Below, piece after piece: positions 6,983 to 24,608 of a DNA stretch of 64,000 bases (its first letter is position 1; each line of letters opens with the position of its first letter). This stretch comes from Ramazzottius varieornatus. Lineage: Eukaryota; Animalia; Tardigrada. Location: NCBI GenBank assembly GCA_001949185.1, contig BDGG01000001.1, positions 6,844,325-6,908,324 on the forward strand, in the 5' to 3' direction. The position numbers were made by a program, and so were the translations under genes. The notes under the pieces were generated by a model. It was not told where the DNA came from. It searched no databases and saw only the letters and a program-made list of their open reading frames with translations.

Positions 6983-8964
6983 TCATGGCATCCACAGAGG
7001 GCAAGTAGCATATTGCGGTAATGTCCGGAGGTGTGGGTCTGTAAGGTACTCACGATATTTGCATGGTTCAGAAGAAGCTAGTGAATATAGACTGTATCGA
7101 TAGTTCGTACCTCAATATGGGACGCCAGTGTTTTGGTGTACATGACGTCAAACTGCTTCTTGATGTGGCCCATGTCCTGCTCGCATCTCTCGATAACGGT
7201 CCGAACTAGGACTTTGTGATAAACCGTGACTCCCTTAAATGCATTATGAAGTCGCTCGGCGAAATACTTGTTCTTATTCTTGACAAACTTTACTGCAAAG
7301 CACAAGATGAAAGAATACCATAAGTGGCGCAGCCGTCTTTGGTTACCACAAACTGAATCTGAAATCGCGTCGTACCTATGTGTTCCAGCAAGTGTCCCAC
7401 ATCGCCATGCAGCTCTTTACCCACTACGGTCTCCACTTCAATGTCGGCCAGCTTTTCAAATTCCCGTATAACCAGCCGAAGGTGGGCAAAGCTGCGACCG
7501 GCGAAGATGGCGATAAGGGCGTCGTCTTTGGCCCAGTGTCGAGGGCCTGCATCGTACAAGGCTCGACCCTCCCATTTGGCCTGCATCTCGTTGACGTCCT
7601 TCCCGCTCTCTCTGGCGCCCTAAAGAGCAAAAAAGGCACAATGTATACTACGCTCAAGTACACACTCGCACTGTCTAATTTTAACCGAGGTGTTCAAAAG
7701 GATGCTTGCAAGTTGTAGGGCTTGAATATGGATTCCTAATTTGCTCACCATTAGGACGGCATTCAGCAGTTTCTTGAAATCGCTGGAACTGTGGACGTGA
7801 GAATCGATGTCGGCGCTCAGCTCTTTCTTGTATTCTAGAAGCAAACACCAACCATTATACCATGCCAAACTCCATCGCGACATTTTTCGCTGTGAAATAT
7901 CGTCGGTGAAGGAGACTTCATGAGTATGAGAGCGACAAAGCTTTGTCGAATTTCTCGAAATTATACAACTTCACAACATACGCAGGGCGTATTCGGTTTT
8001 CAGCGAGCGGAGCTCGCGGTTCGTCCGGGTGCATATGATATCTATCACCGCATCCTCATCCGTGGATATCCCCTGGCACAAGCAAAGTTTCAGCATTGCC
8101 GATGGTGCGAAGTAAACATGGTCTTTGCGCCTACCGTGATGGCATGATGTAGGAGTTGTGCTTCGTATTCGGCTGGCGTCTTGAACAGACCCTCCAGTAC
8201 CTCGTCCAAGTGACCGCTGAACAAGATTGTCAGCTCTCCCTTAAATGCTTTGATTATACTCTGCGTACGAGAAGACATCATCGCTTCAGAGAAGGATGCA
8301 CAATTATCGTAATAATATTATTACCACACCTTTCCATATTTGTCCCGGTAAACACTGGCGATTGCTTGCCGCTGTTTGTTGGTTCGTTTCGACAAGAGTT
8401 CGATGATAGCGCTCTCGTGTGTTCCTAAAACCATATGCACACACTCAAGCCAGTGTTTCTCAGTCCGGCAAACCCAAAGGCGCATTACTCACCGAGACCT
8501 CGCATGGCATCGTACAATACTTTGGCGTCGACCGCAGGATCAAATGGTTGATGCTCAAAGACCGTAGGTCCGACAATGGGTCCATCAGTTCCACCAGTGA
8601 CATTCATTTCCTTAAGGTAGGCCATCCTGTTCATAATGCGGACTTTTCGGTAGGCGTCGCGGCCTGCACGCTCACCAATGCTGGACGACCTGGAGCGGGA
8701 CAATGACTGGTCGGCCGAGAGCGTAGGTAAGGATGAGGCTATTCCCCCGCTACCACTGTCGCTGTCGGATGACGTATTGGCAGTAGAGAAACGTCTGTCG
8801 ATGCTGAACAAGGGAGGAACCTGGTCAAAATCAGAGCGAGGAATGGAAATGGCTGTTGCGGAGTTTAGCGTTGATTGATCAGCAGTAATGTGGATTTGTG
8901 GGATATCGGTGGAAGGGGTCCGTGACTCAGCCTGTGAATTCCGCAGGGCCGAAGCGGAAGCCAT
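6983..8964 (-). CDS. Annexin with long Ser-rich N-terminus (multi-exon, divergent)
   Basis: FDPAVDAKVLYDAMRGLG/TRESAIIELLSKRTNKQRQAI; PAEYEAQLLHHAI; YFAERLHNAFKG..LVRTVIERCEQDMGHIKKQF; ends HTSGHYRNMLLAPLWMP*. Confidence 0.9.
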
Positions 8965-9744
8965 TTAACGCTTCATTGATCTTGCTGAGTAGCGAGGCAT
9001 GTAACGCCGAAGTAATCGGCGAACCTGTCAAGTGAAAACCTGGTAAAGATCGTTTTTTCCACGAGAGGACTTCTTAACGAGAGGACTTCTCGAGCCTGGA
9101 TAAGAATGAGAGGTAATCGACGAACTGAAGTAGACGTGCCAAAGGATTTTATTCGTAAACAATTCAAGCACAATTGGCCAAATCAATGGAACAAATGCTA
9201 AAGACCTTCGGGATCGATACATTGTATCCTGATGAAGAGATACGAAAGACGAAGGTGAGAAGGAGCTGTCAACGATCAGCGTATTTCTCCCATGATTTAA
9301 CTGCCTTTTTGGGTGGCGCAAGTTCACACGCGCATACATTCCACGTCAGCACATTGCTAAGTTAGTATTGATTCGCTTAACCTTTACTAGTGGACGCAGT
9401 TTGCATAATTATATACCGGCCTGGACAAAATTACCGGCCACTGGCCAAATGCGATGGCCACCCGCTAAAGCTGAACAATCAACTAGTCAATCGATGCGCT
9501 GCCGCTGAAAATTAGGCAAACTGCGTGTACGTATCAGAATAATTCGGGTTCGATGTGCAACATGGTGATTCTCAACGTACTTATTGTACAAAATGAAATT
9601 TATTTACAGGTACCCATACCGTATTCCGTACTGCTAAAATTCAAGCCAGCCAAGAAAGATACACAAGCCATTCAGGAAAGGGTAATAACAGTGACAATGC
9701 ATGCTGCACGTGGTGACAATTTGGCGCTTCTTTGGCCAGGCCAT

Positions 9745-10017
9745 CTAGCCAACTATGAGGGGTCTAGCCACAACTGGGACTGGGACTGCGACTGGGACAA
9801 CCTCAACAACAGGACCAACTCGGCGGCGTCCTCTGCATTCGGCAAACTGCCCTTCGCAATATCCGCGGTTGAAACCCACATTTCGGCAGCATAGGTCAAT
9901 ATCTATTCGCCTGTCGAAAGCACCACATTCACGGTCGCAGCCTGGAACCCGCCTTGCATCAGCCCAAATCAGGAAAAGTCCGACGAAAATAAGAAGGGTA
10001 AGCTTCAGAGCCGCCAT
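9745..10017 (-). CDS. Diapausin-like secreted six-cysteine peptide 1 (single exon)
   Basis: Signal peptide then RRVPGCDRECGAFDRRIDIDLCCRNVGFNRGYCEGQFAECRGRRR; C-x3-C-x11-CC-x9-C-x6-C; TATAAA on the minus strand at 10098-10103. Confidence 0.85.
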   Translation of the reverse strand: MAALKLTLLIFVGLFLIWADARRVPGCDRECGAFDRRIDIDLCCRNVGFNRGYCEGQFAECRGRRRVGPVVEVVPVAVPVPVVARPLIVG

Positions 10018-10547
10018 TGACGCTATGCAGGAATAGCACTAGGCCGAACGAAACAGTGGGAAGCACGAGCAACGATTGAGGGACAAAAATATCCGTCTTT
10101 ATAACGCCTTTCGAGGAGCCTTCAAACCTGCCGAACTTGAGCAACCCTGTGGTGTCTGGAAAGACCATAGACACTGCGGAACTTGCCGAGACCTTCGGCG
10201 AGCTTGTCGGTGTTGTTTACCTACAACCGACAACCCCTCGCACAGTACAACAGATAAACAGCCACAGGCCAAGTGACAATTTGTTATTGAATCTAGCAGA
10301 CTATAGGTATAGGCATCTAGCCAACTATGTTGGCCAGTTTTGCTGTGGACGGTCCAAGAACAGTTAATTTTGCGCTATCTGGACATCAGGACTATTGCTG
10401 CACTGGATGCAAAATCACGGAATTGTACAAGAACTTATTACCAGCTGGCATAAGGCAGAAGGAGGGAATACGGAGTCGAATCAGATTATTCAAACCGAAC
10501 AAGCGCTCAAGTAAGCAGGCCAACAGCCGAGTTCCATAACGACACCT

Positions 10548-11058
10548 TACTAGTGATGGCGTATCATACAGGATTTTCTGTAATCTGTTCCAGTGGATCG
10601 ACAAACTACGCCTCGCAAAAGCATCACGGTTCGGTTTTGGTAGCTGGTCCATCAGCTCCAGTCGGCATGGCCAACCCTTTGATCTTCAGCTCTCTGCTCA
10701 TAATTCGAGTGTAAGCTTGCCTACCAGGTGACTTGCTCCGAATCTTTTCCGATCGTTTGAGAAGTGCGTCCGAGAAGCTAGGCAGTGGACAGGGGGCGAA
10801 GCTAGCGGTGGGTGGCGGAGAACTCAGCCGTCCAATTGTGCTAGTGTCGACTTCCTGGTCACTGGAAACGCTGGCGGTCGACAGACGACGGTCGAAAATG
10901 AACAAGGGCGGACGGTCAGAACCAGGACCTACTCTCGCCGGAACCACCACGTTGGAAATGACGGCTGGTTCCGTGGTCGTTCGAGCTGCGGAGGATTCTC
11001 TGGAATCTAAGTGCAAGCCTGCTTGGGATGCCGACTTGACAGCCATCAAAAGCATCAC
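10548..11058 (-). pseudogene. Decayed duplicate of the annexin first coding exon
   Basis: PPLFIFDRRLSTAS..GRQAYTRIM..PTGADGP matches annexin PPLFSIDRRFSTAN..GRDAYRKVRIM..GGTDGP; then a stop and frameshift, with KILYD (cf. KVLYD) before a GTAAGG donor-like site. Confidence 0.7.
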
Positions 11059-11865
11059 CGATCTTAGGGGAAAAGCAACAGAAAATTGTCTGGTAAATGA
11101 CTATGTTACACGGGGGAGAATTCGTGCAGTTTTCGTACCCTGCATTCTGCTGCGAGATGAATAGAAAGGGACTCTACCTTTGATCAACTCGCAGGACGAC
11201 TGGGAAATGCTTTCCATCCGTAAACTTCTGGACACAATTGCCGCAATCGATGGGTCGGATGATAGCTAAGGACTTTTGGGATCGATCTGCCTATTTGCAT
11301 CCCGTTCTTTTGTTACATACCTACGAGAAAGAACGCTTGGCCATAAGAGAACAAAGGCGGTCTCCTGCTGCATCTTTTATCGATCTTCCCCGCTTCAGCC
11401 AAAATTAACGCGGGAGTGTGATATTGATAGCTGGACCGCATCACTGCGGGAAATCTTCTACTATCGATATATGTTCACATCGTGTCGTGGGGGATCTATG
11501 TAGTCACCTGACATTTGAGCCATCAGAAACTTGCGATGTCCTAAGCGCATCACGAAATTCCGTTGGTAGTACTAAGCTCGCTTCGCGCACATTTGATGCA
11601 TTATTCTGTGCTCAACAGGAGATTGAACTATTATATGTGCGGAAAATATTGGGCCAGCTTTTGTAGGTCACTGGTCGGCAGTACGAAAAGCTTATGGTCC
11701 GATGTGGTATAGTGATCCCTATTTTCAAAACTGGTTTTTCATAACTGTTTTCTCTGTAACGAACGTCACGGTGTTAATCGACATGACCCTCAATAAGTGA
11801 CGGCACAATAAATAGCGCAAGTCGGTGTGCGCCGACTGCAACCCCACCGCTGAGATAGTCTTTTC

Positions 11866-12417
11866 TATGGTGAGCCGGTGAGTCGCGCGAGTCAAAGTCC
11901 ACAGTACTTCCACTGCGGTACGTGGGCCGAGAACCTCCATGCGCTGTGAGATACTTTTTCCGCGCATCCACCCGCGGGTTTTTGCCAGAGTTTCACCGCG
12001 GGCGTACGCCCCGATAAAATTCATTTCCCGCAAGTAGATGCGCGGTACAACTCTTTCTCCTCACTTCCACGCACGGTTCAACTGACCAATCGGCGGGTGC
12101 GCGCGAGGACAAACTAACACTAACCCGATGTGACGGGCGGTTAATAAATATGTTGGTTGGCGGGTGCATGCGCGAATCAAAATTCCTTGTGCCAATTTTC
12201 AGTGTATGGAAGTGCGGATGAAGTCTCCGCGCGTCCATCCGCGTACAAATTCTGTTAGGCCACGCTTCCATGCGCGGAAAAAGAAATTTTACCCGCCCGT
12301 ACACTCGCGGTGAAGCTCTTGCAGTAATCCGCCGGTAGATGCTCGGAAAATGTATTTCACCGGGCATGGACCCGCGGTCAAAATACTGTGGACTTTTGAG
12401 TCGCGCGGCTCACCATG
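11866..12417. mobile_element. Foldback-type MITE with long (>150 bp) imperfect inverted arms
   Basis: atggtgagccggtgagtcgcgcgagtcaaagtccacagta mirrors tactgtggacttttgagtcgcgcggctcaccatg; 11935-12030 mirrors 12272-12370. Confidence 0.8.
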
Positions 12418-12788
12418 CTTTCTCTAATTGGAGACAAGCAGAATACTGTATTACCCTGAACCGCAGTACAACTCTTACGTAATACATGTGACGTCTGAGG
12501 TTCTTTCGGGATAATTGTACATTAACTTTTTGCACATACAGAGTAGAAGATAACGTTAATTTACGGTACTGTAAATATTCGATGCTATCACGCAGTACGC
12601 ACACGTACGTGACGATGTACTCCCGTAGGGCGTTGCGCAGGCAGTAAAACCGGATCAGCGAATATTTACAGCATATGCTACAAACAGAAAAATGGAAAAA
12701 TCACCCGAAAAATATAAACGGCAGTGCTAGAATGAACCAGACCGATACACAGTGCAGCGGTGCCGCGCAACAACGGGGCACAAGGGAA

Positions 12789-13046
12789 CTACTTTCCAGG
12801 ACCGAAGCGGTCGCGGCGGCCATCGAACCGTCCGCGACATTGAGCGCCCCCTCTTCGTCCTTCGCACAATCCATTCTGGAATCCGTTACGACGGCAGCAA
12901 ACCGTGATATCAATCCGTCGGTCATCGCGTCCACATTCCCTATCACAGCGGCGAACTCGCTCCGCGTCGACGCATCCAGGAGCCGTCATTGCCAGCAGCA
13001 AGAACAGCGCAACTAACGCACAAAAAGAAAGCTTTAAACCTGCCAT
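12789..13046 (-). CDS. Diapausin-like secreted six-cysteine peptide 2 (single exon)
   Basis: MAGLKLSFCALVALFLLLAM.. signal; ERVRRCDRECGRDDRRIDITVCCRRNGFQNGLCEGRRGGAQCRGRFDGRRDRFGPGK. Confidence 0.85.
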   Translation of the reverse strand: MAGLKLSFCALVALFLLLAMTAPGCVDAERVRRCDRECGRDDRRIDITVCCRRNGFQNGLCEGRRGGAQCRGRFDGRRDRFGPGK

Positions 13047-13851
13047 TGCAGTGAAAGAGGATGATGCCGAGGACAGCGGCGGAAGTTGGTACAAAGATCT
13101 AACCAAATGGATACTTGAGGTCGAATTGTGCTGAAAATAGAATATAGCTAATACTCAGACGGCGGGTAAACAGACAGTGTTTTTATGTCTGAAGAACTTC
13201 GATACAGGTATGCGGTACATGGCAAAGCAAACAACACGGCAGTTCCTGATAGGCCATCCGTAGCCCCGAGATGTTCTTCGAATTCAGTGTTGCTTTGATC
13301 GAGCAGGTGGGTTCCTACTAGTGTGCGATGCATACACTACGGACAGGTTCCAAGATTCAGTCAACTCAGATACCGCTTGTTCGAACCAATTCATCATAAA
13401 CAACATTAGTCATGTGACCGACGCAGATCCGGCATTTGTGTCACATCGATTTAGTCTGTCTTAAGCGCGGAAGATGCCTTGGTGGGATGAACTGTATATA
13501 CAGTACTTTTTGTACAGTACAACTGTTTCCTCTGTATTTTGCGTAGCAGCAGACATAACGCATGTTGGCCAGCGCTGTGTAGCTTAAAAGCCTTAAATCT
13601 CGTACGAGACTTTACAAACAGCAGTCTTTCCGGAAACGGGCCAGAAAACTCACTCCCGAACACCCACCATTCGCACTAAAACCCCATTAGATGACATTGA
13701 GAATAAAAGTGTGATGAGAGGAAGCGGTCCTAATGTTGGTGAACAGCATGAAATGACCGAAGAAGAGTTTTCATCCAGTTTATACATTAATTTCAAAACC
13801 AAGTTGTGCACGTTTTTCGTGAGAGGCTGAGCCGTCTTGTGAAATTGAAGA

Positions 13852-14124
13852 TTAGAATATATCTGGAACGTTATCATATATCCAGAAGGGGGGACGGCGT
13901 GATCGACGACGTCCACGGCATTGCGCACGTCTCCCTCTTTGACAGAATCCCCGGTCAAAACCTTGCTGACGACAGCAGATCCTAATATCGACTCGCCGAT
14001 CGTCCAGTCCGCATTGTCGGTCACAACGACGAACTCGTCTGGTGACAGTTCCGGGATACTCAGCAGTGACAGTCAGCAGCAGGAAGAGCCCAATGAACAG
14101 GAGGGCGGACAACTTTACAAGCAT
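13852..14124 (-). CDS. Diapausin-like secreted six-cysteine peptide 3 (single exon)
   Basis: MLVKLSALLFIGLFLLLTVTA signal; RRVRRCDRQCGLDDRRVDIRICCRQQGFDRGFCQRGRRAQCRGRRR; TATAAA on the minus strand at 14289-14294. Confidence 0.85.
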   Translation of the reverse strand: MLVKLSALLFIGLFLLLTVTAEYPGTVTRRVRRCDRQCGLDDRRVDIRICCRQQGFDRGFCQRGRRAQCRGRRRSRRPPFWIYDNVPDIF

Positions 14125-22329: not shown

Positions 22330-24608
22330 CGAGGGGATTTTTCCAATCCGCCGCCTCTGATCCTCAAACCGACATCACAGGTGGATAGAGAAGAGTTTTC
22401 TCTATAGTCTGAACCGGAAACCTGGTCATCTTTCCGTTCCTGGAATAAACTGCAGGAACCGGAAGTTACGTCAAAATTAGGGCGGTACTGTACATTGACC
22501 GAGGCACAATCAATAAGTTTGATTTACTCATAGTTGATTGGCCAAAATTGATTGTTCCTTCCATCATATGAGCTTGTCGCTGTAGCATGACGCATCTTTT
22601 GTTGATTCTCTCCTCCATAATCTTCCCACAACACTGCGATGTACTCCATCAATCCCTTGAACGTGCTAAAGCTCCTGGAAGAGGAACACAAACTCCGGTA
22701 TCAACCGGACGATGCGCCAAGTGAAGCGGACAAGCAGCTGAAAGACATTATCAAAGGTAGGTATTTTTCCGAAGGTTCAGTGCAGAAGTAAGAGGTTTTG
22801 TTTCACCGGATTGTTGGAAGATTCTAGATCTTATTGACATCAAAATTGCTCGAAGCGACAGTCCTGTGCTGGAGGTTGAAGAGGACTTGCAGGGGGACTT
22901 ACAGCTCGACGGGCTAACGTTCGACGACTTTGAAAAGACGGCGGGTGATGCTAACCTGTTGAACGGTAGCGCTGAACGTTATTTCTTCGAAGATGATCGC
23001 TTGAACGAGCCCGTTACAAGTGACACTGAACCTTCGTCCCACGAAATATTTGTTCCGCGACTCCCAGATCCGAGAGTTCCGTCAAGCCAAGCTGTCGATC
23101 TCGACTACAAGAAACGTGCTGTTGATTACTGGTGTAACGCTACAGCAAAGAAACGGCGGAGCTTGTCTTCAGTCCGAAACCATTTCACAAAAGTTCGGGA
23201 CGAACGACAGCTAAGAGACTGGAAGAAACAGCTAGCTGAAGGCGGATCCCGATTCGACAAATTGAAAGTCATTCGCTTGGAGACAGCAAAGCAGTACTTC
23301 ATGGCCAAGCAGAAGACACAAGTAGTCAAGGATATGGATCTTCAACGATGGGCGATAGCCGCGAATAATGATGTGGATCTGCCTGGTTTCACCGCTTCGC
23401 CGTACTGGGTGTCAAAATTCAAACGGTAATTGATATCGTGCAAGAATTTACTTATCGATTTAACGAAGGCAGATCTTCTGTATTTGAACGTCGGCAAACG
23501 ATTTCACCTGAATCGTCAGTTCAAGTAGCGCACGTTACCGTACTCAATAAGTGACAGCGGCGCCGCTTGAAAAAAAACGACCTTTTCCAATTTGCTGGCA
23601 GTGTTCCGATGACATAAGGCGTGAAACACGTCGAGGCTATAACCCAGTCCGACAATTCCATGACTCATTCCTATACTGTCATGATAACAATCTCTCCCGG
23701 CATACGAAAGGTTTATCCTATTTTGTTCATCACCCTGAAAGAAGAAAAAGGAGTCTCTGGCCCAATCGTGTCTAAAACAATGTTCAAAGCTGATGTACAT
23801 CACTGTGTCGACATCGGGAAAAATGACGAAGAAGCTCTACCTGGAATGGTCCGAAAAAGTGTTGTTTCCGCATATGGAAGACCGCTGTATCCTTCTGGCT
23901 GACTCCTGGAAGACGTTCACCGATCAGGACGCTGTTATCGAACTCAAGCCCGAAGAGCTGCAGTACGAGATGATCACCATACCTCCCAAAGTGACTGGTA
24001 GTATCCACCCGTTGGATGTTCTTTGCTTCCGGATGTACAAGGGATGTTTCAAAAAGATCTCAAATTTCGTGTTTGTTAATGATATTCCTGTACATGTCCA
24101 TCATAGGGACGTAATCCTAAAACTTCATTCCTTACTGTATCAGCAGTTTCAGTCACCCAGATTCGAGAACCTAATTGTAAGTGCCTGGTTCAAGTTGGGA
24201 TATACGGATGAACGGGTACAGTATGTGAACCCCGCAAGCTTCATGTTCAAGAAGCTGAATGGCCGCTGCATTCATAATAACTGTAAGAATGCTGTCCTTC
24301 TGGTCTGTGGGTGGTGCAAAGGTCGCCTCTGTTTTCACCATTTCTATGATGTTCATCATTTCTGTACCATCTACCTGCCTTAATGTTTTTTTGAATTTTC
24401 CACTAGATATCTTTACGAGGACGGAAGTAACAGGTTAACTTGTAGCGCCACCTGTGTTGGAATTTTGACGTAACTTCCGGTTCCTGCAGTTTATTCCAGG
24501 AACGGAAAGATGACCAGGTTTCCGGTTCAGACCATAGAGAAAACTCTTCTCTATCCACCTGTGATGTCGGTTTGAGGATCAGAGGCGGCGGATTGGAAAA
24601 ACCCCTCG
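22330..24608 (+). mobile_element. Tc4/Tc5-type DNA transposon, 2279 bp, ~149-bp TIRs, TCA duplication in a CTCAG site
   Basis: TIRs 22330-22478 and 24461-24608 differ by about 2 nt; tca at 22327-22329 and 24609-24611; removing the element plus one TCA restores KS codons H-T-E-H-A. Confidence 0.92.
22639..24383 (+). pseudogene. Tc5-like DDE transposase (intron-containing, frameshifted or garbled around 23480-23790)
   Basis: HTH-like DMDLQRWA..FTASPYWVSKFKR; THSYT; ILLADSW; IPPKVTGSIHPLDV; C-terminal CGWCKGRLCFHHFYDVHHFC. Confidence 0.85.

Follow-up and report, generated by a model that had tools for sequence, protein, structure and literature searches.

Three diapausin-like peptide precursors with a candidate amidation site and unrelated C-terminal tails in the tardigrade Ramazzottius varieornatus

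A 64,000-nucleotide stretch of the Ramazzottius varieornatus genome (contig BDGG01000001.1, positions 6,844,325 to 6,908,324; hereafter the window, numbered from its first letter) carries three intronless open reading frames (ORFs) on the minus strand that encode small cysteine-rich peptide precursors, here called copies 1, 2, and 3 (Table 1). A preliminary description of this DNA had placed them in an interval ending at 13930, and the copy 3 ORF runs past that point. All six frames of the window were searched for the cysteine frame of the peptides, which was matched three times, at copies 1 to 3, and nowhere else. We propose that these are three paralogous diapausin-like genes with products that are likely antifungal and, by prediction, secreted, that a Gly-Arg-Arg site behind the cysteine core is likely cut and the core amidated, and that the tail behind the site, a C-terminal pro-piece, is likely discarded. 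We assign this combined reading a probability of about 0.45; its central step, the predicted cleavage at the Arg cluster, is by itself somewhat better than an even bet.

The core spacings, which differ only in the loop before the last cysteine (six, eight, and seven residues in copies 1, 2, and 3), fit the diapausin motif C1,X3,C2,X9-14,C3C4,X9-11,C5,X6-9,C6, in the form given in the passage of PMC10051947 that defines it, in all three copies. The preliminary description missed the resemblance of the core to the diapausin, or diapause-specific peptide (DSP), family (PDB 2E2F, Pfam PF08036), which includes blapstin and springtail and nematode members. With this family the tardigrade copies share the six-Cys spacing with its CC doublet, a signal peptide, a Val a few residues before Cys1, the sequence C-C-R-x-x-G, and, in the models of copies 1 and 3, a full-length structural alignment that ends one residue past the last cysteine (Cys6+1). 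They differ from it in having no Pfam match and far more Arg and in that all three are long-tailed with Gly-Arg-Arg. Each is a small precursor that has no other domain besides a predicted signal peptide at its N terminus, the form that the literature sets for such peptides; hydropathy peaks at 2.8 to 3.1 within the first 20 residues, a helix stands at the N terminus of both structure models, and the leader cleavage sites were set by eye. The cores are under purifying selection, with a proportion of synonymous differences (pS) of 0.83 to 0.96 versus 0.19 to 0.29 for nonsynonymous ones (pN). Copy 2 has an additional Cys (residue 25; 12972-12974) ahead of its core, which would be lost if the signal were cut after residue 28 and would otherwise be unpaired.

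AlphaFold models of copies 1 and 3 were built on six-row alignments (mean predicted local distance difference test score, pLDDT, 70.6 and 66.9) and compared with 48,161 chains. Residues 21-62 of the copy 1 model aligned with residues 1-41 of diapausin 2E2F at rank 2 (Z 4.2; root mean square deviation, rmsd, 2.0; 40 residues aligned; 32% identity), and residues 28-70 of the copy 3 model aligned with the same stretch at rank 19 (Z 3.0; rmsd 2.5; 41 residues aligned). Sequence searches of solved structures gave nothing under E 0.3, and Foldseek searches of the PDB and viral libraries gave nothing at E up to 0.001. The top viral fold match, Q91FL6 (308L of invertebrate iridescent virus 6), was nonsignificant at E 0.5; PMC10506718 cites a diapausin-like gene in an iridovirus.

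A profile of the three copies, run against 1.84 billion representatives at E up to 0.001, gave six matches, of which four are genuine relatives by their cysteine frame; P0002 and P0005 are repeat proteins and were dismissed as spurious. Relatives P0003 and P0004 match the Pfam diapausin model (PF08036, Antimicrobial_6) below its curated cut-off of 25 bits (E 0.02 and 0.00025; 15.4 and 21.5 bits). A second profile search led to the acceptance of five of 824 candidates, two of them new, and the relative P0011 carries a precomputed Pfam diapausin annotation. Among these relatives (P0003, P0004, and P0011) are two-core precursors that end in Cys-Gly and also a protein from the fungus Ophiocordyceps. 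Exact, word-indexed, profile, and metagenome searches found no ortholog of the three: an exact look-up of the precursors in a collection of 15 billion sequences returned 0 of 3, a word-indexed search with copy 3 gave six candidates with none at E up to 1, and a metagenome scan gave 431 pattern matches with none confirmed. Because they are missing from the collection and no close homolog was found, the three proteins are likely unannotated.

The sequence that follows the last cysteine was assessed as a processing site. C-R-G-R is invariant in 3/3 ORFs and G-R-R-R occurs in copies 1 and 3, both as originally described; copy 2 reads R-G-R-F, with one Arg after the Gly. The motif is kept at the protein level, since its Arg codons differ synonymously (AGA/CGC/CGT and CGC/CGG/CGT). 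A Gly with two basic residues lies within 8 residues of Cys6 in 3/3 copies versus 2.8%, 12.7%, and 5.1% of composition-preserving shuffles, the three copies sharing an ancestor and so not being independent. This is the Gly-dibasic arrangement of antimicrobial peptide (AMP) precursors with a C-terminal propeptide; it stands at Cys6+2 for copies 1 and 3, and copy 2 has it at Cys6+6. In both models the last residue of diapausin 2E2F falls on the Arg that follows Cys6 (residues 62 and 70). Once cleaved, trimmed, and amidated, copies 1 and 3 would stop at the same Arg as the solved diapausin; the predicted product of copy 1 has 41 residues, the length of diapausin. G-R-R-R suits the convertase, carboxypeptidase, and PAM route outlined in the relevant passages of PMC5863496. 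Amidation machinery in tardigrades is implied by a mass spectrometric search for tardigrade neuropeptides in which, according to the description of that search in PMC11879619, amidation was set as a fixed modification. Few published diapausin tails (1/100) have Gly plus two basic residues, so that retention of the motif in 3/3 saturated paralogs suggests that it is used. An amidated Cys-Arg core from every precursor, as first envisaged, is plausible for copies 1 and 3, whose product ends where diapausin ends, and does not hold in that form for copy 2, whose product would end four residues later. Copy 3 would also offer other places to cut, and from some of these no amidation would follow.

The tails behind the site read as first quoted, and they are unrelated, without significant similarity in DNA or protein. 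Local DNA scores of tail pairs over 60 nucleotides gave p values of 0.17 to 0.30, and in-register identities were 7/30, 9/30, and 12/30 (p = 0.78, 0.34, and 0.14). The last figure concerns copies 2 and 3, whose tails had been considered alignable in register, an idea rejected on this shuffle result; reading the tails in three frames and aligning their DNA led likewise to rejection of the idea that they are frameshifted forms of each other. Of the three protein pairs, one reached p = 0.035, uncorrected, from a four-residue match. Among the three paralogs, which are all that the comparison covers, no tail conservation was detected. Counted from R-G-R, the tails run for 26, 12, and 18 codons and lie inside the random run-to-stop distribution of open frames in flanking noncoding DNA (3,299 starts; median, 16; quartiles, 6 to 31). 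The pieces released by a cut would have 24, 7, and 16 residues and net charges of 0, +1, and 0 in copies 1, 2, and 3, and are in this respect not the anionic or charge-rich pro-pieces of Gly-dibasic AMP precursors. In both models the tails have pLDDT values below 60 and no secondary structure. Unrelated sequences, random lengths, tandem hexamers, and neutral pieces are the expectation of drift behind a cut site.

Tails of at least 10 residues after Cys6 were tallied by eye in published diapausins. Among 23 springtail diapausins (PMC10051947 supplement, parts 2 and 3 of 7) three are long-tailed, and in none of them is there an internal Gly-dibasic; one tail has Gly-Lys at its end and no dibasic at all, and one ends in Gly, these two tails having 12 to 13 residues. 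The nematode table (PMC10506718 supplement 3) has 116 rows, of which 39 incomplete ones were excluded; 13 of the 77 complete diapausins are long-tailed, with a basic pair in 4 of the 13, and one extra row with additional cysteines was not scored as tailed. Nematode OTIPU g10625 has GRRR after the last Cys and a 15-residue tail ending in Gly, like copy 1, and g10918 has two cores joined by a GRRR linker. Combined, long variable tails occur in 16/100 published diapausins and the Gly-dibasic form in 1/100, and 4 of the 16 long tails end in Gly or Gly-Lys. The GRRR-plus-tail form is thus rare yet not unique to the tardigrade.

A signal, a mature peptide, a Gly with a basic cluster, and a variable C-terminal piece follow one another in the same order, with occasional offset sites, in the scorpion FSPL peptides and in myticalins A/B. 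MeuFSPL has GKRRR and then a C-terminal propeptide, according to the passages of PMC5863496 that describe it; mussel myticalins have Gly, a dibasic site, at times offset, and a variable C-terminal extension in the account of PMC12294457 cited here; and mytilins carry a C-terminal extension too, as mentioned in PMC12466427. The pro-region of Ascaris cecropin P4 is described in passages of PMC2834666 and PMC6780910 as non-antimicrobial and as inhibiting the mature peptide. The mature peptides of FSPL, myticalins, and cecropin P4 are linear and their pro-pieces acidic or charge-rich, whereas the tardigrade core would be disulfide-bonded and its pieces are short, neutral, and mutually unrelated. 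The tardigrade precursors would work like Gly-dibasic AMP precursors and are not members of those families.

Several observations count against the proposed reading, beginning with the identity of the core. Pfam returned no family for 3/3 precursors and 3/3 cores, and the PF08036 threshold was missed. Because of this result and of the scores below 25 bits of the relatives, the peptides are classed as diapausin-like and not as PF08036 members; 3/23 published springtail diapausins are likewise without an InterPro match (PMC10051947 supplement). The fold scores of the models are tied with those of plant defensins: NsD7 equals diapausin for copy 1 (Z 4.2), and NsD7 (Z 5.0) and drosomycin (Z 4.6) outrank it for copy 3. 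A helix on a beta-hairpin is shared with defensins of the CS-alpha-beta (cysteine-stabilized alpha-beta) type, whose structural scores equal or exceed that of diapausin, so that the fold alone cannot part the two; the cysteine pattern does. The invertebrate CS-alpha-beta defensin motif (C2,X3,C3 on the helix, ending C4,X7,C5,X1,C6; from the motif definitions in PMC10051947) is not matched by the tardigrade copies, which have the CC doublet and lack C-x-C at the last strand. Atlas leads for the fold are all below 0.9 and mixed, with CS-alpha-beta defensins at 0.83 to 0.87.

Other such points concern processing and the tails. With 14 of the 32 non-Cys core columns invariant, three consecutive invariant columns have p ~0.08, and the invariance of C-R-G-R is just moderately above chance within these copies. 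Copy 2 has no dibasic at the shared position, its G-R-R standing four residues on. In copies 2 and 3 the motif also occurs between Cys5 and Cys6, as it does in a springtail diapausin, and an R-V-R-R stands immediately before Cys1; because G-R-R is found inside the disulfide core as well, it need not be cut. Both models set Cys6-Arg-Gly-Arg in the last strand (E58-64 in copy 1 and E68-72 in copy 3), and this modeled position would be a structural reason for the conservation of R-G-R. The site adjoins a disulfide, and copy 1 has a Val after the Arg cluster; both features are unfavorable for convertases. Once cut, the copy 1 core would have a net charge of +1 alone, and none of five relatives has Gly-Arg-Arg after Cys6 (0/5). 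Among the tails, 2/3 end in Gly or Gly-Lys versus 7.0% of the 2,979 stop-ended frames of the window (p = 0.014, post hoc), which is not a prediction of pure drift and is explained equally by amidation of an uncut peptide. The 11 Val among the 24 residues of the copy 1 tail, written with three different codons, point away from drift.

Under the diapausin-like, cut-and-amidated reading, the signal peptide would be removed and the core would fold as a helix plus beta-hairpin. A furin- or proprotein convertase (PC)-type enzyme would then cut in the Arg cluster, a carboxypeptidase would trim to the Gly, and PAM would amidate, yielding Cys-Arg-amide cores of 41 residues (copy 1) and 49 residues (copy 3) and a copy 2 core four residues longer. 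Because everything behind the cut would be removed, the sequence and stop position of the tail could drift; the tail would at most aid sorting or mask the core. By analogy with diapausins, reported as antifungal in beetles in the passages cited from PMC10269622, the core would act against fungi.

A less probable, still tenable alternative is that the precursor stays uncut after the core, with R-G-R(-R-R) extending the last strand as a cationic patch, the tail attached, and only the terminal Gly of copy 1 and Gly-Lys of copy 2 used for amidation. The strand position in the models agrees with this, as do the mature net charges (+4, +8, and +11 versus +1, +5, and +8 if cut), the two springtail tails that end in Gly-Lys or Gly, one of them without a dibasic, and the 4/16 long tails with such an end; melittin-type precursors, in the section of PMC5863496 that treats them, retain the basic cluster and shed the final Gly alone. 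Set against it, the solved diapausin needs nothing past Cys6+1, copies 1 and 3 carry the canonical convertase motif R-G-R-R, the tails are of low pLDDT and unstructured in the models, and a functional attached tail should keep some homology, of which none was detected. The preliminary description had gone further in the other direction, to an amidated core, here diapausin-like, plus a second active linear peptide that differs per copy and helps or modulates the core, which we consider doubtful. Terminal Gly or Gly-Lys in 2/3 tails would amidate the released pieces, the Val-rich tail of copy 1 and the nematode proteins g10625 and g10918 fit such a design, and passages of PMC2834666 and PMC12294457 indicate that a natural C-terminal pro-piece can modulate its own AMP and that Pro-rich peptides can synergize with defensins. 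Yet the tails share no detectable ancestry among paralogs and have random-frame lengths, the pieces set free would have a net charge of 0 or +1, with just 7 residues in one of them, the copy 1 tail is partly a hexamer repeat, and the pro-piece characterized in the cited passages of PMC2834666, that of cecropin P4, is non-antimicrobial and inhibitory. Given these points and the known AMP pro-piece design, a second, different functional peptide from each precursor has at best weak support. The stronger version, in which a conserved amidated core is joined by a second peptide that is exchangeable, drawn afresh from 3' sequence by every paralog, amidated in 2/3, and able to tune or potentiate the core, is improbable.

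The peptides could also be diapausin-shaped without being antimicrobial, for example ion-channel modulators or secretory-gland, cuticle, or egg peptides, with the Gly-basic site reflecting neuropeptide-like processing; this strikes us as very improbable. The fold neighbors do include channel-active cysteine peptides beside defensins, at low and tied scores, and the Atlas leads are mixed. Small tandem clusters of cationic, diverging Cys peptides, such as this one, are nevertheless typical of AMPs. The characterized diapausins are antifungal in the passages cited from PMC10051947 and PMC10269622, and the role of those of nematodes is described as not established in section 16 of PMC10506718.

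No tardigrade diapausin was found in the literature searched, which leaves most subscription journals outside it and does not prove absence from print. The single mention of such a peptide in PMC6889759 concerns Panagrolaimus nematodes, another paper names tardigrades just as ecdysozoans, the passages of PMC5116183 that mention tardigrade CS-alpha-beta sequences name no diapausin, and a survey of tardigrade immunity treats novel tardigrade antimicrobial peptides as an open question in the part cited (PMC7056985). These are likely the first reported tardigrade diapausin-like peptides, in a precursor design already known. Three apparently expressed genes absent from the searched protein collections are concrete candidate effectors. 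They also bear on the beetle-to-nematode transfer of diapausins proposed in passages of PMC10506718: with diapausin-like genes in a third ecdysozoan phylum, patchy inheritance gains in plausibility. The matter of the tails is an ordinary one unless free tails turn out to be active; if a core with an exchangeable second peptide were true, the nematode GRRR-plus-tail diapausin would make that design recurrent.

Transcript evidence came from contigs of 4 of 24 listed runs, with RNA status guessed by the tool and no run recorded as RNA. On these contigs the three genes are apparently expressed. The tails of copies 2 and 3 are covered in 4/4 runs and that of copy 1 in 3/4, with no joint, indel, or alternative letter. 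The same runs skip five GT-AG introns in the adjoining annexin gene and one more at 11063-11177. Because such splice-skipping contigs cross the tails continuously, the tails are present in mRNA as read, and the idea that they are misread introns was rejected. A loose contig end at 13156, which we take to be adapter, suggests the 5' end of the copy 2 mRNA. In run X9 a contig joins 13044 to 12844 within copy 2; it was seen in 1/4 runs and is probably a library or assembly artifact.

Table 1. Coordinates of the three peptide genes and of the annexin duplicate in the window
Feature	Position	Strand	Remarks
Copy 1 ORF	9745..10017	-	90 aa; leader hydrophobic (residues 1 to about 21), then a core of diapausin type, G-R-R-R, and a Val/Pro tail
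Copy 1 core	9835..9939	-	C-x3-C-x11-CC-x9-C-x6-C
Copy 1 Gly-Arg-Arg-Arg	9820..9831	-	predicted convertase/amidation site, putatively used
Copy 1 tail	9748..9819	-	24 aa; net charge 0; last residue Gly; four tandem GTC(C/G)CA hexamers
Copy 2 ORF	12789..13046	-	85 aa
Copy 2 core	12837..12947	-	C-x3-C-x11-CC-x9-C-x8-C
Copy 2 Gly-Arg-Arg	12813..12821	-	set four residues further on than the site of copies 1 and 3
Copy 2 shared R-G-R	12828-12836	-	monobasic in copy 2
Copy 2 piece released if cut	12792..12812	-	7 aa; ends in Gly-Lys
Copy 3 ORF	13852..14124	-	90 aa; contigs span the ORF in 4/4 runs
Copy 3 core	13918..14025	-	C-x3-C-x11-CC-x9-C-x7-C
Copy 3 Gly-Arg-Arg-Arg	13903..13914	-	further basic residues follow as alternative cut sites
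Copy 3 tail	13855..13902	-	16 aa; net charge 0; last residue not Gly
Degenerate duplicate of annexin 5' part (original 8434-9283)	10487..11351	-	485/776 aligned bases identical

Copies 1 and 2 likely arose by tandem duplication of a peptide gene together with the 5' end of the neighboring annexin gene, which is intact next to copy 1 (Pfam Annexin, E 2.8e-9). The annexin duplicate sits behind copy 2 as the annexin does behind copy 1, its alignment score is 135.5 versus a shuffle maximum of 68.5, and the 3' untranslated regions of copies 1 and 2 are weakly similar (score 53.5 versus a shuffle maximum of 46.5). The duplicate is contig-covered and spliced (10250-11351, minus strand; intron 11063-11177), with a frame that ends at 10624, ahead of the annexin repeat. 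One contig (X1) spans 13156 to 10270 and so links copy 2 with the duplicate, which does not by itself prove a single transcript. A 16-nucleotide exact match (9742-9757 and 10314-10329) covers the copy 1 stop codon and is close to where the duplicated annexin piece ends; it was set aside as nonsignificant (E 0.06; score 34 versus a shuffle maximum of 34.5). Downstream of copy 2 is an inverted repeat (11877-12031 and 12274-12414; 71% over 157 nucleotides) resembling a miniature inverted-repeat transposable element, and loose contig ends at 11929-11931 suggest that further copies of it exist elsewhere.

Elsewhere in the window, 13 short palindromic repeats, each about 43 nucleotides long and 63 to 100% alike, form a dispersed family that extends from 2493 to 58114. 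An element at 22334-24605, whose 145-nucleotide terminal inverted repeats are 99% alike and which has two long frames, lies inside a putative fatty-acid-synthase gene; the identities of the putative transposase and of the synthase were set by eye. An exact 300-nucleotide duplicate (44186-44485 and 44863-45162) flanks a run of N at the 5' end of HDAC3 and is likely an assembly artifact. The window is tardigrade DNA by its long HDAC3 frame, which shares 99% identity with R. varieornatus RvY_02480 across 85% of its length and is 81% identical to the Hypsibius protein.

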